A program made the translations under genes and the position numbers. Positions 1 through 19,258 of a stretch of DNA of 19,258 nt are shown piece by piece; position 1 is the first letter of the stretch; the number at the start of each line of letters is the position of its first letter. The stretch lies in UHGV virus genome UHGV-0045429, one strand, 5' to 3'. Source of the stretch: a virus. The notes beneath the pieces were generated by a model. It had not been told where the DNA came from. It worked only from the letters and a program-made list of their open reading frames with translations, and made no database searches.

Positions 1-675
1 TTAGCGCAGTTCAAAAAGATAACCTTGCCCACGTACGGTGGTGATCACCTCATGCGGATATTGCGCCTGAATTTTTTTACGCAGACGTCCCATCAGGACA
101 TCAATGGTGTGACTTTCACGCAGTTCGGCATCCGGGTAGAGCTGTAACATAAGCGAATCTTTACTAACGACTTTGCCGCTATTACGGATCAGCGTTTCCA
201 TAATGGTGTATTCGAAAGCCGTAAGTTTGATCACTTCATCGTTCACGGACAGTTCGCGGCGAGAAAGGTCCACCTGAAATGGCGGAAGCGAGATTATCTG
301 CGAGGCCAGGCCACTATTGCGGCGCATCAATGCCTGCATTCTTGCAACCACTTCTTCAATGTGAAACGGTTTGGTGACGTAATCATCTGCACCGGCACTG
401 AGCACTTCCACTTTGTCCTGCCAGCCTTCACGGGCAGTTAATACCAGAATGGGCAATGAAACGTCATTACTGCGCCAGCGGCGGATCAGTGATAGTCCGT
501 CTTCATCGGGGAGCCCTAAATCGACGATCGCAATATCCGGCAGGTGTTCATTAAGAAAATAGTCTGCTTCCTTTGCATCTTCTGCATCATCCACCTGGTG
601 GCCTAAATCCTGGAGCTGAACCTTAAGGTGGTGGCGTAATAATGCATTATCCTCAACAACCAGCACGCGCATCAT
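1..675 (-). CDS. phoP: PhoP, OmpR-family two-component response regulator (complete; stop codon at positions 1-3)
   Basis: 224-aa ORF; [20 protein letters not shown]... through ...TVRGQGY matches enterobacterial PhoP as I recall it (receiver domain plus winged-helix output). Tandem ATG ATG at 675/672 with GGGAGA upstream; true start may be 672. Confidence 0.9.
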
Positions 676-745: not shown

Positions 746-2035
746 TTAAATAACTTTTTTCATGCTCCCTCGCCCGTGGGGGCGTCCTGGGGGCAGTGCT
801 GTTGGCATCTGATTGTTCAGCATGTTGACCTGATCCTGGTTCATGTCGCCAATCCACTTGGAGTAAACCTCGTACACCATTCGCGCATCTTCATGCCCCA
901 TCTGACTCGCTATGAATGACGGGTTCGCTCCGGCCATCAACGTCCAGCAGGCATAGGTATGCCGTGACTGATAAGGATTCCTTTCGCGGATATTGGCAAG
1001 TTTAGTACCTCGCTTCCAGCCATAGGCAATCGAGTTCTTGGAAAAGTAACTGCCTTTCTTTGACGAATATGCTGTCGGTGAAAAAACGAAGCGAAGAGAT
1101 TGCTGCTCAGTTTTACCGATCTCCCGATGGTGAAATCGAATTTCTTGCTTCGGATTAGCGCCGGTGATTTCGTATTGCTCCTTCAGTGCATCCAGAGCAG
1201 GCCTAAGCAACGTTATTGTCCTTATTCCGGCATCTGTCTTAGGAGGTACAAATACTCGCTTATTCGTCAAACTTCTGGATACGTGGATTTCACCTTTTAC
1301 CAAATCAATATCTTCCCATGCCAGGGCGCACATCTCGCCCGGCCTCATCCCCGTATGTACGGCAACAATGATGATTAATGCCTGGCTACGGGGAAGGGCG
1401 GCTATCAGTGCCTGGTACTCATGAAGTAAAAGTGGGTCGGGATCATTTTTAGATAACTTGAGTCGCGACACTCCTTCATAAGGAGCATGCAATATAAACT
1501 GGCTTCGGTTTGCGAGCTTAAGCATTTCTGATAAAACTGCCATCTGTTTATTGACTGTTGAGGGCGCGCGGCCTTGCCGGGCCAGATTCGGCATTGCCGG
1601 GTTAATAATTGTACCGGTCAATAACTCCTTTCGGTAATGCAAAATATCGGCATGCTCAATATCTACCAGACGGGTATTTTCTCCGATTACACGCTGTAAC
1701 GTATTTACGACCGAAGTAAGCGATAGCAGCGTTGCACCAGATACCTCTAAGGCTTTGGTGTCTGTAAAAAAATCACTCAACTCTTTAAACGTGGTGATTT
1801 TTTTGGTTGTGATGAACTTCTTAAGCGCTTTGGATTCCGGGAAGCGTTCCGCATAGTCGAACTTACCGAGCTGTATTTCGCTTGTGATGAGTGCGCGAAG
1901 ATTTCCAGCTTTTTTGATGTTGCTGCTGTTCACCGTCCAACCGCGAAGGACTTCGCGGCAACGTTTGCCGCGATAGGTAAATGTAATCCGTATTTTCCCA
2001 TTATGCAGCTCAACGCCGGTTGGAAAGTCCATCAT
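746..2035 (-). CDS. int: Phage tyrosine integrase with N-terminal arm-binding domain
   Basis: 429-aa ORF; C-terminal catalytic signature ...RHTYACW...GHEDARMVYEVYSKW (R/H-x-x-R/Tyr). Start overlaps the stop of the upstream xis-like ORF. Confidence 0.9.
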   Translation of the reverse strand: MMDFPTGVELHNGKIRITFTYRGKRCREVLRGWTVNSSNIKKAGNLRALITSEIQLGKFDYAERFPESKALKKFITTKKITTFKELSDFFTDTKALEVSGATLLSLTSVVNTLQRVIGENTRLVDIEHADILHYRKELLTGTIINPAMPNLARQGRAPSTVNKQMAVLSEMLKLANRSQFILHAPYEGVSRLKLSKNDPDPLLLHEYQALIAALPRSQALIIIVAVHTGMRPGEMCALAWEDIDLVKGEIHVSRSLTNKRVFVPPKTDAGIRTITLLRPALDALKEQYEITGANPKQEIRFHHREIGKTEQQSLRFVFSPTAYSSKKGSYFSKNSIAYGWKRGTKLANIRERNPYQSRHTYACWTLMAGANPSFIASQMGHEDARMVYEVYSKWIGDMNQDQVNMLNNQMPTALPPGRPHGRGSMKKVI

Positions 2036-2306: not shown

Positions 2307-2534
2307 TCAAAAATCAGTAGTTGGTTTTGTCTTACGTTTTTGGCGCCGTTTTTTCTTCGGCTTGATGCTTGGTGGCATAACGAGCCGACGCGCTGGTGGC
2401 AGACTAAAAACATGCTCACTGATCTGTCTGCGTTCTCTCATTTTCCATACATGCCATGCCGTCCAGTCACACCCATCATCACAGATGTGCTGCGAGCGGA
2501 TCAGCGCTTCATCGCCGGTTAAATTCTCTGTCAC
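2307..2534 (-). CDS. Small hypothetical protein with Cys/His cluster and strongly basic C-terminus (KPKKKRRQKRKTKP)
   Basis: 75-aa ORF with a GTG start overlapping the stop of the upstream large ORF (GTGA coupling); sits between the RecE-like gene and xis. No family recognised. Confidence 0.35.
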   Translation of the reverse strand: MTENLTGDEALIRSQHICDDGCDWTAWHVWKMRERRQISEHVFSLPPARRLVMPPSIKPKKKRRQKRKTKPTTDF

Positions 2535-4399
2535 TGCTCCGCCTCCGCACTTATAACCCCAGCGGCCAGCGCAGCTGCCATGTGTGGCAATTCGTCAAAA
2601 TCACCTCGATATGCCGGGTTAGCGCACATCCCCTGCAGAGCCGCTAGCGTCAGCTGCTGGCGGTAGGTCAGGGTGGTAGACAGTTCACCATTGGTGACGT
2701 CGCTACCCGGTGAGGAAGCAGGCAATTCTGGTTTTTTCTTCGGTTTGGCTGTGACAACTGCTGGAGCTATCACTATCGGTTTTGGTGGCTCTGGTCGGCG
2801 ACATTCCACGATCGCATCGAGGGCGATTTTCTGACGCAAGGCAGCATCATCAGACCAGCCATCAAGAATTGTCGTTGCGACATCGTGAATTTCGTCATCG
2901 TTGAAATTAGGGGACAGACAAAATTCAGTGGTGGCGATATCGATGATCAGCAGAGGAAGAACGTCAGCGATAATATGACCGGTGCATGCCACAACGCCTT
3001 CCGCTTCTTCCTTACCCATAACGTCAGTACGTCCCGAAAGCAGGTCGTTCAGTGCGTGGGCAATCTCAATTTCATGATCATCCAGAAGTGGGCGACCGTC
3101 TTCCTGTTCGGTCACTTCCGTTTTTTCGCCCTCATTTGAGGCGCTATTGGCAAATGCTGCATCCAGTTCCCTGTTGAGCTCCGCAGCGCGAGACGGGCAG
3201 ACTGCCGGTATTTCAGTTCCGTTCTGTAATGTCTGTTCGGTTTGATCATTGAGGACCACCTCATTATTTTTTTGTGGCAGTGGGGCGGATGTACGGCCGC
3301 ATGCGATATCAACAATCAGTGGATCCGGATTTGCGTGATTTGACTCAGTCAGGTTTTTATTGATGTATTCGCGCAGTTTTACCGGATCGCGGTAGATATC
3401 CTCCGGAGAGGATTTAATTAGGGCAATAATTGCTGCGCGGGAAAAATCCAGAATACCGGGCGTGCGACGTAACTGTTTCCACCATGCAGTAAAGCGCTCA
3501 TCGGTTGCGGTTTCTTCCATTTTTTTGGCACGCTCATGAACGGCATGCGGCAGTTCGTAGATGTCGAAATCCATAGCAATACCCAGAATACCTATGCAGA
3601 CCTCGCGGCGCAGGGTTGCCAGCGTATGAGGTAGAACGCGATCGGTTGGGTTACCGCCGCCGAGCGTACAGCCTGATTCGGTGTGTGTGTCTTCACTGGT
3701 TTCAGGTTCGTCAGTTTTAAGTTTTACTGGCTCGCGTTTATCGGGCGGGGTCTCAGCCCATTGGGTAAACAGGTTTTTATAGTCTGGCCATTTAGCATTG
3801 TCGCGCGCCCTCTGACGCACCCAGGCCAGGCATTCGGTCTGTTTTTCAGGAAGCATGGCAAGAATGCGGGGTTCTTTGGCAAGACCCTCTGCCTGTTCGC
3901 GTAAAGGGCTAAATTCATCATCATTCAGCATGTCGATTAACTGGCCATACTGAGAAGGGGTGATTTCATCAATGACACCAAACACCGCGAGGCAGTATGA
4001 GCGGGCCAGCACATCCAGTTCTTTCACCGGTTTCATTTTTTCTTCTGTCGCGTCAGCATTGAGTTGTTCATTACCGCCAGCAAGCTCTGGCTCAACTATG
4101 ACGCGCTCTGGTTCACCTTTCTCCGCATTCCAGACAATTTCACCAGTGAAGAGGTCGGTATAGAACTGTCCCTCAACAGTGCAGAACATTCCTTCTTCTG
4201 TTTCCCAGACCTTGGGGGCGAAATAATCATCAGCATAATCTGGCGCGAACTGTATAAAGTCAGCATGCAGTAATGTCTTTGCAATTGTTTTATTTTTCGC
4301 TTGTTTAAAAGCAACATAAACCGGAAGTGTACTGTCTTTTTCAAGTGCACTTTTTTTCGGTTCGAATCTCCCGCCAAATTTTTTTAATCCAGTTGTCAT
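2531..4399 (-). CDS. Large acidic early-left protein resembling the N-terminal region of RecE (exonuclease VIII); no C-terminal nuclease domain recognisable
   Basis: Start taken at MTTGLKKFGG (ATG 4399, GAGG RBS 6 nt upstream). Segments GGGNPTDR...MDFDIYELPHAVHERAKKMEE and LREYINKNLTESNHANPDPLIVDIACGRTSAPLPQ match what I recall of the E. coli Rac RecE N-terminal region. No recT-like ORF follows. Confidence 0.6.
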   Translation of the reverse strand: MTTGLKKFGGRFEPKKSALEKDSTLPVYVAFKQAKNKTIAKTLLHADFIQFAPDYADDYFAPKVWETEEGMFCTVEGQFYTDLFTGEIVWNAEKGEPERVIVEPELAGGNEQLNADATEEKMKPVKELDVLARSYCLAVFGVIDEITPSQYGQLIDMLNDDEFSPLREQAEGLAKEPRILAMLPEKQTECLAWVRQRARDNAKWPDYKNLFTQWAETPPDKREPVKLKTDEPETSEDTHTESGCTLGGGNPTDRVLPHTLATLRREVCIGILGIAMDFDIYELPHAVHERAKKMEETATDERFTAWWKQLRRTPGILDFSRAAIIALIKSSPEDIYRDPVKLREYINKNLTESNHANPDPLIVDIACGRTSAPLPQKNNEVVLNDQTEQTLQNGTEIPAVCPSRAAELNRELDAAFANSASNEGEKTEVTEQEDGRPLLDDHEIEIAHALNDLLSGRTDVMGKEEAEGVVACTGHIIADVLPLLIIDIATTEFCLSPNFNDDEIHDVATTILDGWSDDAALRQKIALDAIVECRRPEPPKPIVIAPAVVTAKPKKKPELPASSPGSDVTNGELSTTLTYRQQLTLAALQGMCANPAYRGDFDELPHMAAALAAGVISAEAEQ

Positions 4400-4406
4400 A
4401 ATAACC

Positions 4407-4607
4407 TCAATAATGTTTATGTGAATGGCGTGCATTGCTTCTGCTTAAATTACAGCGCCGTGGTTCATGAATTTGTTTGTAGGAGATAGCATGCTCAAGG
4501 CTACAGAAATAAGCAGTCACTACTCTCTTATGAATTCTTTTTGTTGATTTATACATGGAATCATCAGAACTCCATTTTTTACAATACGGACAGCACTCAA
4601 GTGTCAC
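4407..4607 (-). CDS. Small Cys-rich ORF (possible zinc-binding protein); weakly supported
   Basis: 66-aa ORF with GTG start preceded by GGGAGGG; translation MTLECCPYCKKW... Position is analogous to the small ydaE/racC-type genes upstream of recE in Rac, but there is no sequence-level confirmation. Confidence 0.3.
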   Translation of the reverse strand: MTLECCPYCKKWSSDDSMYKSTKRIHKRVVTAYFCSLEHAISYKQIHEPRRCNLSRSNARHSHKHY

Positions 4608-9463: not shown

Positions 9464-9684
9464 AACAGTCTGAGTTACCGCGCTGTCCGGCCTGCGGAAA
9501 TATGCCCGAATACGCGCTAAAGCCAAACCATATGGGATGGGTATGGGGTGGATTGAAATGTCCGTATGACCATTACCGCGTGAATTTGGATGGTCCAGCC
9601 GGTAGCCGCGTGCAGGCAGAAAAAAAGCTGGCGCCACAGTGGATTGAACTGGTCGAGAAAGCTAATCAGGAGAAATCAGCGTGA
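9460..9684 (+). CDS. Small zinc-ribbon protein, possibly Lar-type restriction alleviation family
   Basis: 74-aa ORF; AGGAG RBS; LPRCPACGN...GLKCPYDHY (C-x2-C ... C-x3-H) pattern. Family call is tentative. Confidence 0.5.
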   Translation: MKQSELPRCPACGNMPEYALKPNHMGWVWGGLKCPYDHYRVNLDGPAGSRVQAEKKLAPQWIELVEKANQEKSA

Positions 9685-10043
9685 AACCAACCTACGAAGA
9701 ACTGACAGTACAGCTCGCTAACGCCGAGAGCAAGTGCAGGGAGCTGGTGGTGGAATGTTCGACAATCAAAGCCATGAGCGATTGCCTGTCTGAAGAGCTG
9801 CGTGGTTATGAATCTGATGGGGCGTTTGAAGGACCGAAGATGCATCTACTGTGGTGGAAAGCAGAAACTCCCGCGACCGACGCTTTCCTGGCTGAAGTGC
9901 GGGCGCAGGTCCACAAGGAAGGTGCTCACTTTGTAGCAAATAGAATGCTGGCCGCCACTCTTTTTGTTTTCGTTATCCTCAATGCACCCGCATGTAACCC
10001 GCTTCGGCGGGTTAGCTTCTTCTATCTGAGATTTTGTTGCTAA
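9681..10043 (+). CDS. Hypothetical protein (N-terminal coiled-coil-like, hydrophobic C-terminus)
   Basis: GTG start with AGGAG 9 nt upstream, overlapping the previous stop. The C-terminal ~15 codons read through hairpin 9996-10013, so the 3' end may be a fusion artefact. Confidence 0.45.
   Translation: MKPTYEELTVQLANAESKCRELVVECSTIKAMSDCLSEELRGYESDGAFEGPKMHLLWWKAETPATDAFLAEVRAQVHKEGAHFVANRMLAATLFVFVILNAPACNPLRRVSFFYLRFCC
9996..10013 (+). terminator. Hairpin AACCCGC-TTCG-GCGGGTT (copy a of a repeated terminator-type stem-loop); weak U-tract
   Basis: Perfect 7-bp stem with tetraloop; identical 18-mer recurs at 17742-17759. Confidence 0.4.
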
Positions 10044-10205
10044 ACGCAGTCTTACCGTTCTATCTGCAGGCATTGAGTAACTAAGTTCAAATGTTACATT
10101 GATCACGTTTTTTAACGTCTCAAAACCTCATTGGTATTGAGTTCCTTTGTGGTAATGATTTTGTTGGATAAAATAGCCAATATCTCAAGGAGTAGGTAAC
10201 CACTA

Positions 10206-10559
10206 ATGATCAATGATGTTAAAAATGCAAAAATTGAAGAATATTTCACCGTTCTAAAAGAAAAGAGCAGACCTCCAAGCAAAGGTGGGAACACAAAGGC
10301 TCTGCATGCCCACTACATTAAAATTGATGGAATGTTATACAGTTTTCTCGCGTTCGGTTCTAAGCAATGGATTTTCAAAACCGACCGAGTATCATTTAAG
10401 TTCGAAATGAACGGCGAATACAGGAATATTCTCCGGGAATCCATTAGCACTATTGATAGCAATGGGGAAGTAGTAATCAGAGGGTTGCGTGGTTTTAGCA
10501 AGAAGATAAGGACTGCTGATACGCGTTTACCAGCATCCAGAAGGGAATGCAGGGATTGA
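10206..10559 (+). CDS. Hypothetical protein (117 aa) in AT-rich cargo cassette
   Basis: ATG at 10206 with AAGGAG upstream; AT-rich codon usage unlike the flanking phage core (by eye); no family recognised. Confidence 0.6.
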   Translation: MINDVKNAKIEEYFTVLKEKSRPPSKGGNTKALHAHYIKIDGMLYSFLAFGSKQWIFKTDRVSFKFEMNGEYRNILRESISTIDSNGEVVIRGLRGFSKKIRTADTRLPASRRECRD

Positions 10560-10712
10560 ATATGTAATTTGTGTCGAATTTGCAATCATTAGCTAGCAAA
10601 TTGAATAAGTAACATAATAATTTTCATGAATAATATGAATAAAAAACCAGGATGACATACTAGGTGTTTCCGGTATCTTATCTATATATTATTTACGTTC
10701 AAGTGACTTTAA

Positions 10713-10874
10713 ATGACTGGCCAGCAACTTACTGAGCTCGAAATCGCTTATGGTGGGGAAGCTTACTCAGATAATGAAATTGATGCGAAAACAGTAGCTA
10801 AATCACTAAAGGATGTTGAACATTCAATGTCAGTGCATTCAAACGCCCTTCAAAGCGACGCTGATAAGTCTTAA
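10713..10874 (+). CDS. Small acidic ORF (53 aa) below the ORF-track threshold
   Basis: ATG 10713 to TAA 10872-10874 (MTGQQLTELEIAYGGEAYSDNEIDAKTVAKSLKDVEHSMSVHSNALQSDADKS), ending directly before terminator b; weak RBS. Confidence 0.3.
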   Translation: MTGQQLTELEIAYGGEAYSDNEIDAKTVAKSLKDVEHSMSVHSNALQSDADKS

Positions 10875-10889
10875 AGTTCGTGTACTGCT

Positions 10890-10912
10890 AACCCGCTACG
10901 GCGGGTTTTTTT
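10890..10912 (+). terminator. Rho-independent terminator (copy b): AACCCGC-TACG-GCGGGTT plus T7
   Basis: Perfect 7-bp GC-rich stem, tetraloop, run of seven T. Confidence 0.75.
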
Positions 10913-10968
10913 ATGCCCCTTACCAATAAATAATTAACCTGAATTATTGTAAATTATTGAGGTTTGTT

Positions 10969-11607
10969 ATGGGTGGCATTTTCGATGAATCATGGTCTGA
11001 GCAATTTACTCAACGCGTTGAGGCTTTGCGTAAACTGGATGATCAGTCCGTTACTCAACCGCTTTTCAGAGAAAAAGCGGATCTGATTTTTACTCAAATG
11101 GCTGACCGTGTTCGTTCGCGTACGCGACAGCAGCTCGGAGAAATCGACGTTAGCGGGATAACATTTGATTACGCAATCCGCTATTACGTTAATCACGACA
11201 CTGGTGATCCGGTTCTGGATCACCTTGTGTCCAGGGTAGGGCCATTCTGTGACCAGATGAAGATCAGCACGGAGGCGTACGGCACAGCGGCGTTCTGCTG
11301 CGCGCTCATGATGTTGAAAGGCGAGTTGCGTATAGCGTATGCATTTTTCAGCATGCTGATGCGCCCGCTCGTTTCTGCGTACAGGTATAACACCGACGCG
11401 AAACGACGTGGCTCTGCTGGTGGGCGCCCGACAAATCCACTTAAAAACGAGGCACTGGAACTGGCGCGGGTATTTACAAAATCCTATCCTGATTCAACGA
11501 TGGTGGCTGTTGTTAACGCCGTCATTTCTGACCTTGAATCTCACTACGTTGGCACTCCGTCAGCACGCACAATAAAGCGCTGGATTCAGCAGGACCGGAA
11601 AAAATAA
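10969..11607 (+). CDS. Hypothetical protein with C-terminal resolvase-type HTH-like segment (putative DNA-binding regulator)
   Basis: ATG 10969 (GAGG RBS; the track start at 10957 is a TTG). C-terminal GGRPTNPLKNEALELARVF...TPSARTIKRWIQQ resembles the GRP-led HTH of serine recombinases, but no recombinase catalytic domain is present. Confidence 0.55.
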   Translation: MGGIFDESWSEQFTQRVEALRKLDDQSVTQPLFREKADLIFTQMADRVRSRTRQQLGEIDVSGITFDYAIRYYVNHDTGDPVLDHLVSRVGPFCDQMKISTEAYGTAAFCCALMMLKGELRIAYAFFSMLMRPLVSAYRYNTDAKRRGSAGGRPTNPLKNEALELARVFTKSYPDSTMVAVVNAVISDLESHYVGTPSARTIKRWIQQDRKK

Positions 11608-11614
11608 CCCCTCC

Positions 11615-11660
11615 GGACAAAACCTTCTTTTGTCGGCATAACCTGGTTTTGTCCGTTTTA
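11615..11660 (+). terminator. Terminator-like hairpin: GGACAAAACC ... GGTTTTGTCC followed by GTTTTATC
   Basis: 10-bp perfect inverted repeat (11615-11624 / 11645-11654) downstream of the 212-aa ORF. Confidence 0.5.
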
Positions 11661-11700
11661 TCATCAAAAAAAATACGTAGAATCCGTCTCACACTTTTTG

Positions 11701-11745
11701 TTGAGACATCTCCCGGATGAGGTGATACTGTTTATATATACAGTA
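11701..11745 (+). promoter_or_regulatory. SOS-regulated promoter: near-consensus LexA box TACTGTTTATATATACAGTA overlapping the -10 element
   Basis: CTG-N10-CAG at 11728-11743; 19/20 match to the E. coli LexA consensus TACTGTATATATATACAGTA; TTGAGA (-35, 11701-11706) and GATACT (-10, 11724-11729) with 17-bp spacing. Confidence 0.65.
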
Positions 11746-11773
11746 TTTGGTCTCTGAATTATCGGGAGATAAT

Positions 11774-11974
11774 ATGCAAATAACTAATGAATTAGTGCCT
11801 GGTGCCTCGGCCCACACAGGACCAGTTTTAATTCAACTGGTGGCGGGTGAAGTGCAAGGTGGCTTTATTTTAAGAGATGATGAATTTGTCACATCTATCT
11901 CCACACTAAATGAAACAAGAATTATGGCCGGATTAGACCCCGCGCCTTTTACCCGATCCCTAACTGATTTATAA
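11774..11974 (+). CDS. Small protein (66 aa) under the LexA box; candidate SOS-induced antirepressor
   Basis: ATG 11774 with GGGAGA RBS, 28 nt downstream of the LexA box; MQITNELVPGASAHTGPVLIQLVAGEVQGGF... No family recognised; function inferred from context only. Confidence 0.5.
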   Translation: MQITNELVPGASAHTGPVLIQLVAGEVQGGFILRDDEFVTSISTLNETRIMAGLDPAPFTRSLTDL

Positions 11975-12036
11975 TAATCACTCGCGAGCGTGAACAACTC
12001 GCAGCTGAGTAACACTGCGCCAACCGGAAATAAACG

Positions 12037-12351
12037 ATGGCGCGTAAAAAATCGTATATAACCAAAGCCGAGCAACAGCACCTCGATCGCGTAGCGTCGT
12101 TGGGTTGTTGTGTCTGCAAAAATCTTGGTTACCCCGACTCTCCAGCGGGGATTCATCATATCCGAACCGGGCAGGGTGCAAGCCAGCGCTCCAGCCATTT
12201 CGAAACTCTGCCGTTATGCGCTGCCCACCACCAGACGGGTGGCTATGGCATTGCTTATCACGCTGGCCCTGAGATATGGGCGAAAAAATACGGCACCGAA
12301 ACTGAGCTATTAATTCAGGTTACGTCAGATTTAAACGGGGACTGGTCATGA
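12037..12351 (+). CDS. YbcO-like nin-region protein (putative nuclease, Cys/His-rich)
   Basis: 104-aa ORF directly upstream of and overlapping rusA, as ybcO-rusA in DLP12; CCVCKN...HHIR...PLCAAHH metal-binding-like pattern. Confidence 0.6.
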   Translation: MARKKSYITKAEQQHLDRVASLGCCVCKNLGYPDSPAGIHHIRTGQGASQRSSHFETLPLCAAHHQTGGYGIAYHAGPEIWAKKYGTETELLIQVTSDLNGDWS

Positions 12352-12707
12352 CCCGTTACCCCGTAACTCCAATCGGCAAACCCCGAATGACAAGAGCCGA
12401 CAAATGGAAGCAGCGCCCGCCGGTGCTCCGTTATCGTGTTTTCTGCGACGAGGTGCGCCTGCATGAAATCGTTCTGCCTGAAAGCGGCGCCCACGTTATT
12501 TTTGTTCTGCCAATGCCAGCGAGCTGGAGCCAGAAAAAACGCGCCAGCATGAACGGACAGCCTCACCAGCAAAAACCGGATATAGACAACCTCACCAAAT
12601 CCCTCATGGATGCCATTTACGACGACGACGCCCACATTTGGGACGTCCGTGCATCAAAAATCTGGGGTGATGAAGGCGCGATTATTATTCAGGAGGGCAA
12701 GGCGTGA
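12348..12707 (+). CDS. rusA: RusA-family Holliday junction resolvase
   Basis: 119-aa ORF; ...KPDIDNLTKSLMDAIYDDDAHIWD... matches the RusA acidic catalytic region as I recall it. Confidence 0.8.
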   Translation: MTRYPVTPIGKPRMTRADKWKQRPPVLRYRVFCDEVRLHEIVLPESGAHVIFVLPMPASWSQKKRASMNGQPHQQKPDIDNLTKSLMDAIYDDDAHIWDVRASKIWGDEGAIIIQEGKA

Positions 12708-14245
12708 TGCCCTTAACATACGGATCCGTATGCAGCGGAATTGAGGCAGCGAGTGTGGCGTGGGAGGTATTGGGCTGGCGGCCGTCATGGTTTTCTCAGT
12801 TCGATCCGGAACACAATTACAAAAACGGTCCTGATTTCCCGTCTGCGGTGCTGGCGCATCACTGGCCGCACGTAAAAAACCTTGGCGATATGACAAAAAT
12901 CGCCGCAGCAATCCGGCTCGGAGAAATTGAAGCGCCCGACGTTCTGGTAGGTGGTACTCCCTGCCAGGCATTCAGCATTGCTGGACTGCGTAATGGCCTG
13001 ACGGATTCACGCGGCCAACTAACCCTCGCTTTTGTAGAACTGGTAAACGCAATTGATGAAAAACGAAGAGAACAGGGAAAACCACCCGTCATTGTCGTCT
13101 GGGAAAATGTCCCCGGAGTATTCAGCAGCAGAGATAACGCTTTCGGATGTTTTCTTGCAGGGCTTGCCGGCGAAAGCCGTGAACTGGAATCACCAGGGCG
13201 AAAATGGACAAACGCTGGTTATGTGCTGGGACCAGAAAGGGCTGTCTGCTGGCGAGTGCTCGACGCTCAATTTTTCGGAGTGGCCCAACGACGCCGCCGT
13301 GTGTTTGTTATCGCAAGCGCTAGAGGGGATATCGATCCCGCAAAAATACTTTTTGAGTCCGAAGGCATGCGCCGGGATACTCCGCCGCGCAGAGAAACGG
13401 GGGAGATCGTTGCCGCCCTTATTGCAAACGGCGTTGGAGTGTGTGGCGCAGACGATAATCAGGGGCAGGCAGGGCACCTGATTGCCATGGCGCACGGACA
13501 GGCAGGGGCAGAAATTAAAACGGATGATTCCGCGCCTACGCTTACCTGTAACCATGAAGCGCCTATTGTTTTTAGCTGTAATGGACACGCATCGTTTACG
13601 CCGGGAGTCAGTGCTCTGCGAACTAAATCAGGCGCAGACCATGAAACGCTGGCTGTTCATGGTACGCAAGATCCCGACACTTTAAAGAACCTGGCACATA
13701 CGCTGGGTCGAAACCATGGGCAAGAGAATGCCGTTGCCTACTGTCTCCAGCATGCACAAATTAACCGGGCAGATAACGCTGGCCCACAGGGTAAAGGATG
13801 GCAAGAAGAATGCAGATTCACTCTGGATTCTCGTTCTTGTGCTGATGCAGTCGCTTATGCCTTCAAGGCCGGGCAGGGCGCAAAAGCGGGTGGCATTGGC
13901 TGGGCAGAGGAACAATCCCCGACACTGACGGCCGCCAGCAGTGGATCGAATTTATCCCCTTCAGTGGTGAAAAATATGGCCGTTCGCCGCCTTACTCCTG
14001 TCGAATGTGAACGCCTGCAGGGCTTCCCCGATAACCACACTTTAATCCCCCGTGATAAGCGTAAGCAGATTACTGCTGATGAGTACGCATACGCGCGCCA
14101 CCACAACCCAAAAATAACCGCAGAGGAAGCCTACAGGCTGGCGAAGGATGGTCCGCGCTATAAGGCCATTGGTAACAGCATGGCCGTACCGGTTATGCGC
14201 TGGATAGGAAGGCGAATCTCTAACGCTCTGGAGCAGACAATATGA
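12707..14245 (+). CDS. Orphan DNA (cytosine-5) methyltransferase
   Basis: Motif I-like YGSVCSGIEAA, motif IV GGTPCQAFSIAG, motif VI VVWENVPG, QRRRRVF, C-terminal RRLTPVECERLQGFPDNHT and GNSMAVPV; large variable region between. AGGAGGG RBS; start overlaps the rusA stop. No adjacent restriction endonuclease ORF. Confidence 0.9.
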   Translation: MPLTYGSVCSGIEAASVAWEVLGWRPSWFSQFDPEHNYKNGPDFPSAVLAHHWPHVKNLGDMTKIAAAIRLGEIEAPDVLVGGTPCQAFSIAGLRNGLTDSRGQLTLAFVELVNAIDEKRREQGKPPVIVVWENVPGVFSSRDNAFGCFLAGLAGESRELESPGRKWTNAGYVLGPERAVCWRVLDAQFFGVAQRRRRVFVIASARGDIDPAKILFESEGMRRDTPPRRETGEIVAALIANGVGVCGADDNQGQAGHLIAMAHGQAGAEIKTDDSAPTLTCNHEAPIVFSCNGHASFTPGVSALRTKSGADHETLAVHGTQDPDTLKNLAHTLGRNHGQENAVAYCLQHAQINRADNAGPQGKGWQEECRFTLDSRSCADAVAYAFKAGQGAKAGGIGWAEEQSPTLTAASSGSNLSPSVVKNMAVRRLTPVECERLQGFPDNHTLIPRDKRKQITADEYAYARHHNPKITAEEAYRLAKDGPRYKAIGNSMAVPVMRWIGRRISNALEQTI

Positions 14246-14877
14246 TGACCCCACGACAAAAACGAGCTCACAAATCAGCACTGGAACATGCGGCAGCCGC
14301 ACCGAATAAGCGCTGGCTGGGGAAATCAATACTGCTCACCGGTATTCAGTCAGCCTGGATCAAATCGCTACTCTGTGTTTGGGGTGAAAGTATTCGCGGT
14401 GGAATGGCACCAGGAACGCCGAAAGGCCACGCGTGCTGGCGGTCGCTAAAGGGTATGCGCTGGTCCGATAAATCGCTCGAGCGTTTTACAGAGGCACTGA
14501 CTCAGGCGAGAGGTGAGGGATTTAAAGGCGAGCTGGCGTTAAAACGTGCACACGCGATTCTCTGGCCCACAAAACCGGTTAGCGTTATCGACGAGGCTAT
14601 AACGGACGATGATGCAGATTTTATGGAAGCGTGCGTGCTGGAGGCGTTTGAAACAACGGATCCGGTTTACGTTATTGGGGTGAGCTACTACACGACGAGG
14701 AAAAAAATCTCGGACCTGACCCGGGATATTCAGCAGATAGCCCCCAGGCTGACTCCGGATGAGGCAAGAAAGCGCGTGCGCTGGTGTGTTGAAATATTCG
14801 GGGCGCGCGTGTATCTGGAGGCACGCCGTCAGTTACACGCTGATTTACAGAAATCAGAATCTGGCGGGAAAATATGA
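14242..14877 (+). CDS. Putative late-gene antiterminator (Q-like); assignment from position and size
   Basis: 211-aa ORF overlapping the MTase stop; GGAG RBS; sits where Q lies in lambdoid genomes (after the nin/rusA block). Family membership not confirmed by any motif. Confidence 0.45.
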   Translation: MMTPRQKRAHKSALEHAAAAPNKRWLGKSILLTGIQSAWIKSLLCVWGESIRGGMAPGTPKGHACWRSLKGMRWSDKSLERFTEALTQARGEGFKGELALKRAHAILWPTKPVSVIDEAITDDDADFMEACVLEAFETTDPVYVIGVSYYTTRKKISDLTRDIQQIAPRLTPDEARKRVRWCVEIFGARVYLEARRQLHADLQKSESGGKI

Positions 14878-15037: not shown

Positions 15038-15334
15038 ATGAAAGAACTATCAGCAAAAGATTTACTACATAAATATTCAAGCCCGCTTGATTCAGTAAGC
15101 CTATTTAACGCAATGCATCTCGCTGGTTTAATTGAAGTAAAGGAATATATTTCCTCGACAGGAAGTGGTGAGATTAAGACCTATCGATCGCTAACTGAGA
15201 GCGGTTTGAAGTATGGGATCAATAAAAGATCTAGTTATAGTGATGCAACTGACTTAAAGTTTTTTCCTTCAAACTTCCATGAATTGTTGGTATTGGTATC
15301 AAAGGAGATTTTGAAGCATTCAGAGATGCTTTAA
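15038..15334 (+). CDS. Hypothetical protein (98 aa) in AT-rich cargo
   Basis: ATG 15038 with GAGGA RBS; preceded by a 160-bp AT-rich promoter-like region directly after the Q-like gene. Confidence 0.5.
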   Translation: MKELSAKDLLHKYSSPLDSVSLFNAMHLAGLIEVKEYISSTGSGEIKTYRSLTESGLKYGINKRSSYSDATDLKFFPSNFHELLVLVSKEILKHSEML

Positions 15335-15415
15335 GGTTTTGATTGAAATCGATGTAGTGGAAAAGAAAACCTCGGCCTGGCAACCGGGGTTCTATAGCGC
15401 GCAAACTTTACCTTT

Positions 15416-15628
15416 TTAGCGTGATTTTTTTCGTTTGAAAAACTCGTAAATTTCGATGCCAACAATAGCGATGGCGTAAAAAGGCCAAAGAAAAGAGGTT
15501 CTAACCGTATCCAGCAGGTCAAATTCCATATCGAGTATTCGATCCGCATGAACCAACAGTGCGAACATCACGATAAATCCCGCGACGTTTAAGGCTAGGT
15601 AAAGATAGAGACTCATGGCTAAATCCAT
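15416..15628 (-). CDS. Small hydrophobic (membrane) protein, convergent with the 98-aa ORF
   Basis: 70-aa ORF; two predicted hydrophobic helices (LYLYLALNVAGFIVMFALLV and FLWPFYAIAIVGIEI) and basic C-terminus KRKKSR; weak RBS. Confidence 0.45.
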   Translation of the reverse strand: MDLAMSLYLYLALNVAGFIVMFALLVHADRILDMEFDLLDTVRTSFLWPFYAIAIVGIEIYEFFKRKKSR

Positions 15629-15812
15629 TTATTAAGGTTTGCTGTGAGTCTACGTGCGATAACCACACAATTAAAAATTGGTATTACAGATCGATTTATC
15701 TTTATCGATCGTTGAAAACGATCGTCATGACACAAATAGCTTAGTGATTGATTGTTATTTAATCAGTTGGAGCCAATTATTTAGTAATTAGTGCTTATTT
15801 TATTAAGCGGCA

Positions 15813-15840
15813 TTGAAAACGAGCCATATTTATTGATAAT
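15813..15840 (+). promoter_or_regulatory. Sigma70-type promoter: TTGAAA (-35), 16-bp spacer, GATAAT (-10)
   Basis: TTGAAA at 15813-15818 and GATAAT at 15835-15840; predicted start about 15847. Confidence 0.4.
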
Positions 15841-15847
15841 TACCTCA

Positions 15848-15935
15848 TGCTTGGCAGAGCTGCGCCACGATGGCAGCGACGATAAGCGAACAATTTGAAC
15901 ATAACGAGAACCCCGCCAGCGCGGGGTTTTTGCTT
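15848..15935 (+). ncRNA. Candidate ~90-nt small RNA or late-leader transcript (promoter to intrinsic terminator, no credible ORF)
   Basis: Only a 12-codon ORF without RBS lies between the promoter and terminator; internal GCTGC...GCAGC stem. Entirely a sequence-based prediction. Confidence 0.3.
15909..15935 (+). terminator. Rho-independent terminator: CCCCGC-CAGC-GCGGGG plus T5
   Basis: Stem 15911-15916 / 15921-15926 followed by TTTTT at 15927-15931. Confidence 0.7.
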
Positions 15936-15946
15936 TCCGGCGATCC

Positions 15947-15989
15947 GACAGGGGTATTCGCGAACGTGCTACGGCACAGTACCCCTGTC
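15947..15989. repeat. 10-bp perfect inverted repeat GACAGGGGTA ... TACCCCTGTC (23-nt spacer)
   Basis: Arms at 15947-15956 and 15980-15989, immediately downstream of the terminator. Confidence 0.45.
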
Positions 15990-16175
15990 AGATCGTCGTT
16001 ATGGTTACTTCTATATGTCAGTTTAGGCCGACATCATTTGTGCCTATCCTTCTGGTCTATTGGATGAGTCAAACGTACCTTGAATGAGGATTGTAGGTGC
16101 CAGCCCGTAAGCCCTGCGGCATGGGGCTTAGTCGAAAAAACACCTCTTTTTTGCAACTTTTTATCACGTTTTCCC

Positions 16176-16223
16176 GTGACAAGATCCTGTTTACTGTTAG
16201 AATCACTCCACATGATTCATGTG
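16176..16223 (+). promoter_or_regulatory. Promoter of the two-gene operon with operator-like palindrome
   Basis: GTGACA (-35, 16176-16181), 16-bp spacer, extended -10 TGtTAGAAT (16195-16203); palindrome CACATG-ATT-CATGTG at 16209-16223 at the predicted start site. Confidence 0.4.
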
Positions 16224-16280
16224 ATGTGAATCTTTTAAAAAAAATAAAAACACATCTATTTCAACGAGTAAGCTCAAAAA

Positions 16281-17045
16281 ATGCAGGCTCAACCCAAGAC
16301 TAAACACCAAGAGTTGGTCGAGACGCTATCATTATATATAGACTCGCGAACCCCGTTAGAAGAACCTCTTTTGGGTGAAATCTTTCGCGATATCAATAAA
16401 CAGTCCGGTGCGTCTCGTGCGTATCTCATGGCTTTGTGGATGGAAGTTCAGAACAGACATGATGAGACAGTGGAATGGTATCTAGAGGCGATAGCTACTT
16501 CTGGTGAGCTCGCTTCTGTTGTCGCAGGTAACTATCTGAGTTATCTGAGTTGCTCAGCGCACAATCTTTTTCACAGAACAGAATTGTTCCGATTGGTAGA
16601 TATATATTGTACTAAGCGGATAAGAAAAATGGCCAGGAATGCAGCATTTTGCATGGGAAATGACCGGCTTGTTAACCGATTCACTGTGATGATGAAGGCT
16701 TTACTCGACGGCCAAGAGCGGGAAGAAATTGAGCGTGAGGGGGCAAAAATGGTGGAAGCTATTGTTACTTTTAAAGAAGCCACTAAGCTAACTTCATCTG
16801 AAATCCAGCAGTTGTGTGATTCAGCCGAACAGATTGCAAATAGCCACGGCGTGAATTGCGCTGGTGTTGAATATTTTCTGAGTGGTGGATATGACAACGC
16901 CATAATCCTATTTGCAGAAACCAGCGACGCTAGCACACTTACCACTATGAACATGGAACTCATAGGTTTGCTTGCTGATGATGCCTATATCGATCGTCCA
17001 TTTACCTCATGGTTTAAGAGCGCAGATATGAAGGATAGGATCTAA
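16281..17045 (+). CDS. Hypothetical protein (254 aa), first gene of cargo operon; no recognisable catalytic motif
   Basis: ATG 16281; stop TAA overlaps the start of the downstream gene (TAATG); lower GC than the phage core by eye; no Walker or nucleotidyltransferase motif. Confidence 0.7.
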   Translation: MQAQPKTKHQELVETLSLYIDSRTPLEEPLLGEIFRDINKQSGASRAYLMALWMEVQNRHDETVEWYLEAIATSGELASVVAGNYLSYLSCSAHNLFHRTELFRLVDIYCTKRIRKMARNAAFCMGNDRLVNRFTVMMKALLDGQEREEIEREGAKMVEAIVTFKEATKLTSSEIQQLCDSAEQIANSHGVNCAGVEYFLSGGYDNAIILFAETSDASTLTTMNMELIGLLADDAYIDRPFTSWFKSADMKDRI

Positions 17046-17446
17046 TGAGCGTATCAGGTCAAGATTTCATTGATTTTGCAGAGAAATGTCTCGATTTCGG
17101 TGATGAGATAGGCTTCAGGAACGTAGTTGGACGCTCCTACTATGGTGTTTACCATGAGATCTGCAGTAAACTTGAGCATTGCTATGTATTGACCTCTCAT
17201 GAGGGGGTGCGTCAGTATCTTATGAGCTCTTCACAGTGTAAAAATGAGCCGTTTGATAAAGCCGGGCTGAGGAGGATTGGTGTTTTCCTTCATAGTCTTC
17301 ACGTGCAAAGAAAGTGGGCTGATTACACACTTCAGCGCGATTTGGTTAAAACTGATGCTGAGTCGGCGCTCAATACTGCGAAACAAGTAATGGATGAAAT
17401 TAAGGCGTTGCATGAGGCAGTTTACCCTCCTCAGCCAGCAGCATAA
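17045..17446 (+). CDS. HEPN-like protein (133 aa) with N-terminal R-x6-H motif; candidate RNase toxin/effector
   Basis: GRSYYGVYH (R30 at 17132-17134, H37 at 17153-17155) fits the HEPN Rx4-6H signature; AGGA RBS; translationally coupled to the upstream gene; followed by terminator c. Confidence 0.65.
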   Translation: MSVSGQDFIDFAEKCLDFGDEIGFRNVVGRSYYGVYHEICSKLEHCYVLTSHEGVRQYLMSSSQCKNEPFDKAGLRRIGVFLHSLHVQRKWADYTLQRDLVKTDAESALNTAKQVMDEIKALHEAVYPPQPAA

Positions 17447-18319: not shown

Positions 18320-19258
18320 TTATGTGCCTAAATGTTTATTAAAGAATGGAATAATCTCCGATAGCGCTTGTGCCGTCGCTTCCGGACGATCATACAGATC
18401 ATAGTGAGATACCCCTTTCACAACCTGCAGCGTCTTCTCAACGGAGCGCGCGCGCTGATAAAGTTCATAACCGTCGCGATAAGAACCAAAACCACCAGGA
18501 ACATCGCCAATAACAATATGTAATGGTTGTATCAGTAGCTTTTCCGTAAAGGCAAAAGCATCCCAGTTTAAGGCCGGTGCGGTGCTGGTAAGTCGCAGTT
18601 TGTTAGGCGAGCCTGGCTTTTGCCCGCGCGGGGTCGTGTAGTAATCAACGGCCTCAATGAGGTCGATATCGTTGATGTTCGCATTCGCCAACGCTTCTGC
18701 ATTGTCAGGAATATAACCGACAACAAGAGCAGCGGCTCCCCGAGCTTCAGCAGTACGCTGTTTACCCAGCGCGTCAATCGTTCTGAGCGCGGCATCCGGA
18801 CTGGAATCCCCTTCACGCATAATGCGCCCATAATTGGCGGCAACCACAGTGGCAACGGCTTTGAAACGGTGATCAATGGTAGCGGCGCTAACGGCATATC
18901 CACCGCCGCCACAAACGCCTAAAACCCCAATACGATCTTCATCCACGTAGGCTAAAGTCACCAGATAGTCTATCGCGCAGCGAAAGTCTTCCACGCGGAT
19001 GGATGGATTTTCGCTAAAGCGTGGCTCACCCCCGCTTTCACCCTGGGTAGAGGCATCGAAAGCAAGAGTAATAAATCCAGCTTCAGTTAGCTTCTGGCCG
19101 TAGACTGCGCCAGATGTCTGTTCTTTACAACTGCTGATAGGATGGGCGCAAACAATCGCCGGGTATTTCTGGTTGGCATCAAATCCCTCAGGTAAGCGGA
19201 GAGTGGCGGCAACTTGCCAGCTGTTGTGCCGGAATGAAACGAGTTGTTCATGAGACAT
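18320..19258 (-). CDS. Alpha/beta hydrolase of the dienelactone-hydrolase type (Cys nucleophile)
   Basis: 312-aa ORF; nucleophile elbow GVLGVCGGGGYA (G-x-C-x-G-G). The start codon lies at the last three bases of the window, so the upstream region is not visible. Confidence 0.8.
   Translation of the reverse strand: MSHEQLVSFRHNSWQVAATLRLPEGFDANQKYPAIVCAHPISSCKEQTSGAVYGQKLTEAGFITLAFDASTQGESGGEPRFSENPSIRVEDFRCAIDYLVTLAYVDEDRIGVLGVCGGGGYAVSAATIDHRFKAVATVVAANYGRIMREGDSSPDAALRTIDALGKQRTAEARGAAALVVGYIPDNAEALANANINDIDLIEAVDYYTTPRGQKPGSPNKLRLTSTAPALNWDAFAFTEKLLIQPLHIVIGDVPGGFGSYRDGYELYQRARSVEKTLQVVKGVSHYDLYDRPEATAQALSEIIPFFNKHLGT

Follow-up and report, generated by a model that had tools for sequence, protein, structure and literature searches.

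The virus genome UHGV-0045429, a stretch of 19,258 nucleotides that was analysed over its full length and is called the window here, carries a phage-type gene for a C5-cytosine DNA methyltransferase (MTase). A preliminary description of this locus, made from the sequence alone, had treated it as a single methylase gene. We find that the MTase is indeed intact, but that the same DNA holds a second conserved open reading frame (ORF) in the +1 frame, termed Z, which overlies motifs VI to VIII and the linker that follows them and which had been missed. The features of the locus, including the conserved C-terminal domain of Z (Zc) and the short modules of the variable region, are collected in Table 1.

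Table 1 Features of the MTase locus and of the surrounding element in the window.
Feature	Position	Strand	Evidence or remark
Host OmpR-type response regulator	1-675	-	Prophage flank
Integrase	746-2035	-	Prophage gene
rusA, Holliday-junction resolvase	12348-12707	+	PF05866, E = 7.8e-15
C5-cytosine DNA MTase, phage-type, orphan, frame 0	12707-14245	+	512 residues from ATG; profile matches and motifs
Motif IV (PCQ, catalytic Cys) GGTPCQAFSIAG	12950-12985	+	P, C and Q invariant in the family alignment; aligns to M.HhaI PCQ
Embedded +1-frame ORF Z	13047-13481	+	Open in 151 of 151 relatives; 141 residues from ATG 13056
Motif VI (ENV) VVWENVPGV	13094-13120	+	Sequence reading and family alignment
Protospacer	13249-13280	.	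Identical to a 32-nucleotide E. coli type I-F CRISPR spacer
Motif VIII WRVLDAQFFGVAQRRRRVFVIA	13250-13315	+	Same bases in the +1 frame encode NFSEWPNDAAVCLL of Z; frame-0 pairwise identity 0.88
Zc, conserved C-terminal domain of Z LLSQALEGISIPQKYFLSPKACAGILRRAEKRGRSLPPLLQTALECVAQ	13305-13451	+	+1 identity 0.60; predicted helical hairpin
Frame-0 linker SEGMRRDTPPRRETGEIV	13358-13411	+	Weak protein conservation; overlies the best-kept part of Z
Frame-0 module 0 AALIANGVGVCGADDNQGQAGHLI	13412-13483	+	Linker and module 0 in 97 of 150 relatives
Module m1 SAPTLTCNHEAPIV	13490-13603	+	In 12 of 150 relatives
Module m2 HGTQDPD…LAHTLGRNHGQEN	13604-13747	+	In 55 of 150 relatives
Module m3 GPQGKGWQEECRFTLDSRS	13748-13861	+	In 7 of 150 relatives
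Module m4 GGIGWAEEQSPTLTAASSGSN	13862-13975	+	In 8 of 150 relatives; L090 DNA match restarts at 13856
Motif IX VRRLTPVECERLQGFPD	13982-14032	+	Frame 0; aligns to M.HhaI
Motif X GPRYKAIGNSMAVPV	14150-14194	+	Frame 0; aligns to M.HhaI
Q-like antiterminator	14242-14877	+	PHROG 753, 4e-54
Alpha/beta-hydrolase gene	18320-19258	-	Opposite prophage flank

The MTase ORF lies on the plus strand, starts at GTG 12704 or ATG 12707 and ends at 14245. Its product matches Pfam PF00145 (E = 3e-36, 125.9 bits with a cut-off of 22), TIGR00675 dcm (114.7 bits with a cut-off of 100.65) and PHROG 116, 'DNA methyltransferase' (1.9e-86), and its best PADLOC model is the 'orphan methyltransferase' oMTase (1e-40). The GGTPCQ (IV), WENV (VI) and QRRRRVF (VIII) sequences are intact and invariant across the family alignment, while motif IX and motif X (GPRYKAIGNS) reside on the same polypeptide as motifs I to VIII, 3′ of the variable region. 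Motifs IV to VI and IX to X align to both M.HhaI and M.HaeIII. Direct reading of the window MTase reveals no inactivating change in motifs IV, VI, VIII, IX or X, and the PCQ and ENV motifs, which the preliminary description had marked for close inspection, are free of such substitutions. Motif I is divergent, with YGSVCSGIEAAS (VCSGIEAAS) replacing FxGxGG and only the first glycine retained. This CSGIEAAS-type motif (12719-12754 in the window) is the norm across the proteobacterial clade, and the canonical F(D/A)GxGGF form occurs in distant members that include the Streptococcus and Mycobacterium phage relatives. The earlier claim that all core C5-MTase motifs are present stands for motifs IV, VI, VIII, IX and X, motif I being atypical; positions 12707-14245 almost certainly encode a real orphan C5 MTase.

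The open +1 frame was found by translating the window MTase and three relatives in all frames. Z begins shortly before motif VI, continues for about 55 codons beyond motif VIII and terminates at a TGA at 13479-13481. The Z peptide NFSEWPNDAAVCLLSQALEGISIPQKYFLSPKACAGILRRAEKRGRSLPPLLQTAL is conserved as far as an Aeromonas phage, and a tblastn search with the Z peptide returned 156 phage records and 533 plasmids, the latter mostly P1-like. Among the matches listed, every annotated one falls under a gene for a DNA methyltransferase or a hypothetical protein, and never under another named function. The match lies in the +1 frame relative to the annotated coding sequence (CDS) in all four phages checked, namely P1 (dmt), Streptococcus phage Javan261, Mycobacterium phage Dove and a Caulobacter phage; the P1 reference record annotates no CDS inside dmt. 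In phage Dove (L006, 2065-3512), the MTase is cut by an in-frame stop and annotated as genes 107 and 108, with an HNH endonuclease gene, 109, directly after it; the Z frame is still open and conserved.

To survey the family, we gathered 160 loci by the frame-0 N-terminal domain only, so that the +1 peptide played no part in the selection; the sample comprises the 80 best matches per collection, and 151 loci contain the motif VIII pattern. In all 151, the +1 frame stays open over 62 codons or more upstream of motif VIII and, typically, over 70-77 codons downstream of it; the +2 control frame is usually open over a far shorter distance. The Z profile matches all 151 loci, and Z is complete in 146. 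In synonymous shuffles that preserve the frame-0 protein and each gene's own codon usage, an ORF of the length of Z arises in about 1% of cases for the window and in 0-0.3% for low-GC members, although in high-GC hosts +1 frames of this length are not unusual.

The pattern of sequence variation changes abruptly within the overlap. Among 99 sequences sharing less than 90% nucleotide identity, diversity is highest at frame-0 codon position 3 up to motif VIII and then flips, so that over the next ~50 codons position 1 becomes the most variable and position 3 drops to 0.02-0.12 in many codons. Mean pairwise amino acid identity in frames 0, +1 and +2 is 0.742, 0.463 and 0.474 in the ENV block, 0.883, 0.593 and 0.561 at motif VIII, and 0.315, 0.596 and 0.333 in the Zc block. 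The position that tracks host GC content likewise moves from frame-0 position 3 to position 1 in the Zc region. The first ~85 codons of Z are a mere shadow of the conserved frame-0 motifs. Because of the positional flip, the +1 identity and the GC tracking, the last ~55 codons (13305-13451) are under purifying selection of their own, at a place where frame 0 encodes a loosely conserved, flexible linker. In Streptococcus (39% GC) and Mycobacterium (58% GC) phages, 19-24 of 37 Z residues are identical to those of the window, and about 9 of 37 are identical in frame 0. Different module-0 families all keep the last Z helix (LPxxLxxAL) in the +1 frame. The selection signal holds across phyla and GC contents, and Z is very probably a genuine selected coding sequence.

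Z also has translation signals that are conserved across the family. The family start codon is an ATG placed over the frame-0 Asn/Asp codon of 'A(N/D)AID' and is kept in 86 of 95 sequences. This Asn/Asp codon ends in T in 87 of 92 sequences, compared to 43% in the remainder of those genes (binomial P = 6e-26, without correction for phylogeny). Seven bases before the ATG stands GGAG, GAGG or AGGG, at a site where the frame-0 residue varies between Glu, Arg and Gly; a strict Shine-Dalgarno (SD) sequence is present in 55 of 95 sequences, versus a background of 5.8%. Conservation of both the ATG and the SD argues for an independent start rather than one fed by a frameshift. No conserved -1 slippery heptamer (X_XXY_YYZ) is found near the 3′ end of Z. 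A -1 frameshift from Z into frame 0 at the end of Z was rejected as a candidate, given the missing heptamer and a stop that varies with the downstream module. From these signals, we infer that Z is probably translated as a separate product.

A search with the Z profile yielded 4661 cluster representatives; of the top 150, about a third have a length of 250-570 residues. Reading 12 of these long proteins and aligning 40 reveals Z, modules, motif IX and motif X in one frame, with a few frame-shifted or degraded exceptions. At the DNA level, in the three loci L070, L170 and L171, frame 0 encodes motifs I to VIII, the linker and module 0 and then stops, and the +1 frame runs continuously from the Z ATG to motif X. 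To judge from these sequences, a substantial sister group is a split enzyme in which Z heads the second polypeptide. We rejected the possibility that the long proteins of the main group are sequencing or frameshift artefacts, considering the 40 diverse proteins, their shared continuation and the three DNA loci. Five others that join motifs I to V to Z at varying points (P0154, P0167, P0177, P0209 and P0251) look like indel artefacts or pseudogenes. The loci selected on frame 0 divide into 127 fused, 1 split, 4 broken and 19 unclassified, numbers that derive from the 80 best matches per collection and may not reflect the true ratio. Since this sample is almost wholly fused, the selection signals described above apply to fused genes like that of the window. 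The fused and split forms differ only in the frame that continues past module 0.

Further rearrangements of the gene were observed among the relatives (L001, 3905-6097; L002, 3906-6071; L004, 1969-4233). The C5-MTase core is fused to a Dam domain in an E. coli CX21 prophage and in P1 Dmt. In E. coli GN05064, Dam is encoded by a gene of its own after the C5-MTase core, and the annotation there lists the C5 gene as a pseudogene, 'missing C-terminus'.

Searches for proteins resembling Z gave no match in Pfam, PHROGs, NCBIfam, PADLOC or PDB sequences, with either the single sequence or the profile. An AlphaFold2 (AF2) model built from 103 sequences predicts a basic-faced helix-loop-helix at Z residues ~102-137, with a block-mean predicted local distance difference test (pLDDT) score of 96-97 over residues ~101-130; the N-terminal part is modelled with low confidence, and a short helix at 85-89 scores lower than the hairpin. 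Foldseek queries of the PDB using the AF2-modelled Z and a split ORF-B returned nothing at E<1, the noise-level matches being MarR-like for Z and Dnmt2 for the IX-X part. We also considered whether Zc might be a displaced motif IX, given a resemblance by eye between 'FLSPKACAGIL' and 'RLTPVECERLQ', and rejected this since hhalign aligned no such segments. A word-indexed protein search retrieved 368 'hypothetical proteins', which are small, lack domains and are mostly singletons; the two for which DNA was read (L008 and L009) are sporadic calls of the embedded Z ORF. We likewise discarded the idea that ordinary annotated proteins carry 'SEWPND…GILRRAEKRG' as a motif, the matches that were read all being calls of the embedded ORF.

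The region between motifs VIII and IX spans about 210 residues in the alignment, compared to roughly 90 in M.HhaI. The preliminary description had called this a large variable domain; it is long, but it is a mosaic of at least four short, cassette-like modules rather than a single domain. A TL-type motif occurs in each module (SAPTLTCNHEAPIV, LAHTLGRNHGQENAVAY, CRFTLDSRSCADAVAY and QSPTLTAASSGSNLSPSVV). Each is held by a different subset of 150 relatives, at varying positions and in varying combinations, and the C-terminal IX-X end is common to 138 of the 150. The closest relative, L090 on a Citrobacter sp. contig, is 92.7% identical in DNA over 12707-13402, after which the match is lost and then regained at 13856-14205; its flanking genes are unrelated. 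The first breakpoint, 13402, falls inside Zc just past '…AEKRGR', and the second, 13856, at the start of m4. The module subsets and the L090 breakpoints indicate that the variable region is a recombining cassette array in a mobile gene. On this architecture, it is moderately likely that the MTase has multi-target specificity, the modules being putative target-recognition cassettes.

The MTase gene is tightly packed between its neighbors. The TGA of rusA overlaps the MTase ATG (TGATG), and the ATG of the Q-like gene overlaps the MTase TGA (ATGA); together with the PF05866 and PHROG 753 matches, these junctions confirm the location between rusA and a Q-like gene given in the preliminary description. 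No restriction-endonuclease match was obtained with Pfam, PHROGs or PADLOC for the tested ORFs at 9681-12351 and 15038-17446, a survey that ran a subset of the ORF and library combinations and in which several neighbors have no assigned function. Nuclease matches near the MTase were confined to RusA and a RecA-dependent nuclease/DUF968 protein (12037-12351), each encoded by a usual member of the nin region. Relatives of the MTase sit in unrelated phage contexts (P1, Casjensviridae and lambdoid prophages). None of those whose annotation was read has an endonuclease gene beside the MTase gene, and none is annotated alongside dmt in the stretch of P1 that was read. The description of the MTase as lacking a cognate endonuclease thus agrees with the neighboring ORFs tested.

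Orphan phage MTases are commonly understood to protect the DNA of the element against host restriction (PMC12707154). The window gene belongs to the early rightward operon, in whose nin region it forms part of the overlapping stop/start chain of rusA, the MTase gene and the Q-like gene. In lambda biology, the early rightward operon is silent under repressor. By analogy, this position suggests that the MTase would be silent under repressor and expressed on induction, which in turn makes a role in protecting progeny DNA more plausible than one in remodelling the methylation of the host. Of the two functions proposed earlier, protection from host restriction is accordingly the standard one, and altered host methylation in lysogens is less likely.

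Overall, the window is a ~17-kb defective lambdoid prophage with an integrase and cI-like, cII-like, O-like, nin and Q-like genes, and no lysis or structural genes were found in it. Adjoining the integrase on the minus strand, a 634-residue ORF (2531-4435) matches PHROG 26058, of unknown function, at E = 7e-203 and exonuclease PHROGs more weakly; it has no Pfam match. GC content is low (0.37-0.45) at ~14.5-18 kb, where ORFs at 15038-15334, 16281-17045 and 17045-17446 have no assigned function. A non-coding block at 15776-15998 is shared, at 83-91% identity, with L090, L091 and L011, three relatives that are otherwise unrelated, and contains a promoter-like TTGAAA-16-GATAAT at 15813-15840 and a GC-rich hairpin with a T-run at ~15909-15935. 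It resembles a pR′/tR′ late-promoter module, although the Q-like gene lies ~0.9 kb upstream of it and two small ORFs intervene. Rfam and tRNA scans of the window revealed no RNA genes.

No near-identical copy of the locus turned up when E. coli genomes and phage records were searched with Megablast; the matches covered only the dual-coding core, at 76-82% identity. The motif VIII/Z overlap contains a protospacer, 13249-13280 (1502-1533 in L172), that is identical to a clustered regularly interspaced short palindromic repeats (CRISPR) spacer which three E. coli strains, MS1170, MS1266 and VTB97074v, carry in their type I-F arrays. This identity implies that E. coli acquired immunity against carriers of the highly conserved dual-coding stretch.

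Taken together, these results are probably best explained by an orphan MTase that carries modules and employs the selected Z as an element of the enzyme. The MTase would be made on induction and would methylate several targets, one set per module, shielding progeny DNA from host restriction. Z would be translated on its own, with Zc serving as a structural or docking element of the methylase. In the split relatives, Zc would dock the chain carrying the recognition region and motifs IX and X onto the catalytic half; in the fused forms Z would be a small subunit of its own, in the manner of the nested beta chain of M.EcoHK31I. Past module 0 neither frame is closed, so the two forms could interconvert, and a single +1 or -1 indel there would suffice to pass from one to the other. 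The specific assignment of Z as an MTase subunit or assembly domain falls slightly short of an even prospect. We propose more tentatively still that the cross-phylum C5-MTase family, which includes P1 Dmt and hundreds of P1-like plasmids, consists of two-gene systems in which Z is an obligatory subunit or docking domain and the gene toggles between fused and split states.

Several observations weigh against this explanation. Frame 0 already holds every MTase motif, so the need for a subunit is not obvious. Three natural variants, L036 (P1-like), L057 and L089, have a broken Z with frame 0 open; here Z is disrupted by a nonsense codon, by divergence, or by deletion of the linker and Zc. Zc has no detectable similarity to motif IX (by hhalign), to PDB sequences or to any fold. 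In the window and in L090, the family ATG at 13047 is ACG (frame-0 codon AAC), and the next possible starts, TTG 13053 and ATG 13056, have no clear SD, which makes weak translation of the window copy possible. The window Z ORF is itself intact, and Zc is conserved despite the ACG. The statistics on selection and on the start site treat sequences as independent and ignore phylogeny. As for the methylase, the second and third glycines of motif I are absent from the window's clade, no literature report of cytosine methylation by this clade was found, and the P1 record describes the activity of dmt only as 'perhaps at C5 cytosine'.

The same completeness of frame 0, and the MTase ORF that stays open in the Z-null variants, would also suit a Z that is an independent small protein using the MTase gene as its coding site. 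Such a protein could be a regulator, acting on the operon or on MTase expression like the C proteins of restriction-modification (R-M) systems, or a DNA/RNA-binding or anti-defence factor. Z has its own SD and ATG, and Zc is a short basic helical hairpin (…GILRRAEKRGR…) whose top Foldseek matches are winged-helix MarR regulators. These matches are not significant, however (E>1), and a free-standing Z or a fusion to another domain occurs in 0 of the 270 matches that were listed or read, out of 368 and 4661. Z is, moreover, covalently joined to the recognition/IX-X half in many relatives. We therefore regard an independent role as unlikely.

A different route to Z would be +1 ribosomal frameshifting or transcriptional slippage, producing an isoform that joins the catalytic half to Zc or, in the 'split' genes, a full single chain. 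The absence of own constraint on the first ~85 Z codons (ENV block, 0.463 in +1 and 0.474 in +2) and of the family ATG from the window is compatible with this route. Classical C5-MTases have an 'L.D.LE…KYYLS.K' segment after motif VIII, and a shifted Zc would fall right after motif VIII, near the site of that segment. Against it, the ATG and SD are fixed 85 codons upstream and are kept against codon bias and changes of frame-0 residues. The 3′ end of Z lacks a conserved -1 heptamer, +1 sites near motif VIII not having been scanned systematically, and no long run of A or of T, such as slippage requires, is visible by eye at 13040-13320 in the window. This makes frameshifting a very improbable source of Z.

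Slightly less probable again is a Z without function in fused genes, either left over from the split form or maintained by frequent switching between the two. That the forms differ only by the continuing frame, that the window lacks the family ATG and that Z is broken in a few fused genes would all fit. Yet the selection signals come from a nearly all-fused set (127 fused, 1 split and 4 broken of 132 classified), the sampled loci span several bacterial phyla with Z complete in 146 of 151, and the last Z helix is kept across module-0 families.

The remaining alternative, that there is no second gene and that +1 conservation is a by-product of frame-0 constraint or of a DNA or RNA element, would account for motifs VI to VIII, where +1 and +2 are about equal and wholly explained by frame 0, and for a long open +1 frame that is not improbable in high-GC hosts, but it is essentially excluded by the three-base periodic flip in variability and GC tracking, by conservation past motif VIII that is poor in frame 0 (0.32) and retained in +1 (0.60), by a Z peptide still recognisable between Streptococcus and Mycobacterium phages, and by the preservation of amino acids in one frame, which an RNA structure or DNA site would not produce and for which Rfam finds nothing.

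The dual-coding stretch of ~430 bases, conserved in phages as far apart as those of Streptococcus and Mycobacterium and P1, would offer a clear example, of which there are few, of a long overlapping gene on the same strand in bacterial viruses; if the family does consist of two-gene systems, it would be among the most widespread and ancient of its kind. Annotation pipelines treat Z-bearing MTase genes as a single CDS; if Z is an element of the enzyme, expression constructs, methylome assignments and engineering efforts, including split-methylase tools of the M.EcoHK31I type, overlook a component. A fused/split toggle would provide a simple model of how multi-domain enzymes break into subunits and rejoin. 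The cassette modules also point to wide protection from restriction, a property relevant to the host range of phages and to the transfer of P1-like phage-plasmids.

The orphan MTase itself is of an ordinary, already known type. Bacillus temperate phages such as SPR, phi3T, H2 and rho11s encode orphan C5-MTases with tandem target-recognition domains between motifs VIII and IX that protect against many R-M systems (PMC12707154, PMC8936443). The window enzyme shares with them a chain of short units between the same motifs, a likeness of architecture only. P1 Dmt belongs to the same family as the window MTase and has the same motif VIII, a divergent motif I and an embedded Z, but it is fused to a Dam domain and contains a different module set. 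The Bacillus-phage enzymes are not known to contain a nested ORF.

Among the literature searched, no overlapping gene in phage C5-MTases is described beyond three precedents, M.EcoHK31I, M.AquI and an HNH insertion in ShiLan. In the actinophage ShiLan, a methylase gene carries, out of frame, an HNH insertion, which forms an alternative-frame ORF and leaves the host frame open (PMC11855218). That case is a mobile homing-endonuclease insertion with a patchy distribution, whereas Z is no insertion, has no nuclease motifs, overlaps motifs VI to VIII and is found in every family member examined. M.AquI is split in the variable region into a chain with motifs I to VIII and a chain with the distal variable region and motifs IX and X (PMC3404938). 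The split relatives (the 40 aligned proteins and L070, L170 and L171) divide their motifs in the same way; unlike M.AquI, their two ORFs overlap by ~140-150 codons in different frames, and the overlap encodes Zc. The window gene differs from M.AquI in being fused.

The closest parallel is M.EcoHK31I, whose beta chain is encoded wholly within the alpha gene, in a different frame, and is indispensable for activity; the N-terminal few dozen residues of beta are largely dispensable and its C-terminal part is active (PMC2836561, PMC3404938). Compared by architecture and from published descriptions, both loci nest a second polypeptide in a C5-MTase gene in another frame. The beta chain of M.EcoHK31I supplies motif IX, which is absent from alpha, whereas in the window motif IX is in frame 0 and Zc is not similar to it; a Z that provides a canonical motif missing from frame 0 is thus not the situation in the window, although the Z polypeptide of the split relatives does supply motifs IX and X. 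M.EcoHK31I also belongs to an R-M system, and the window MTase is an orphan phage gene. The architecture of Z is akin to the nested subunit of M.EcoHK31I and differs from it in scale and depth, with a cross-phylum distribution over thousands of genes that include P1 dmt, and in the duality of its fused and split forms.

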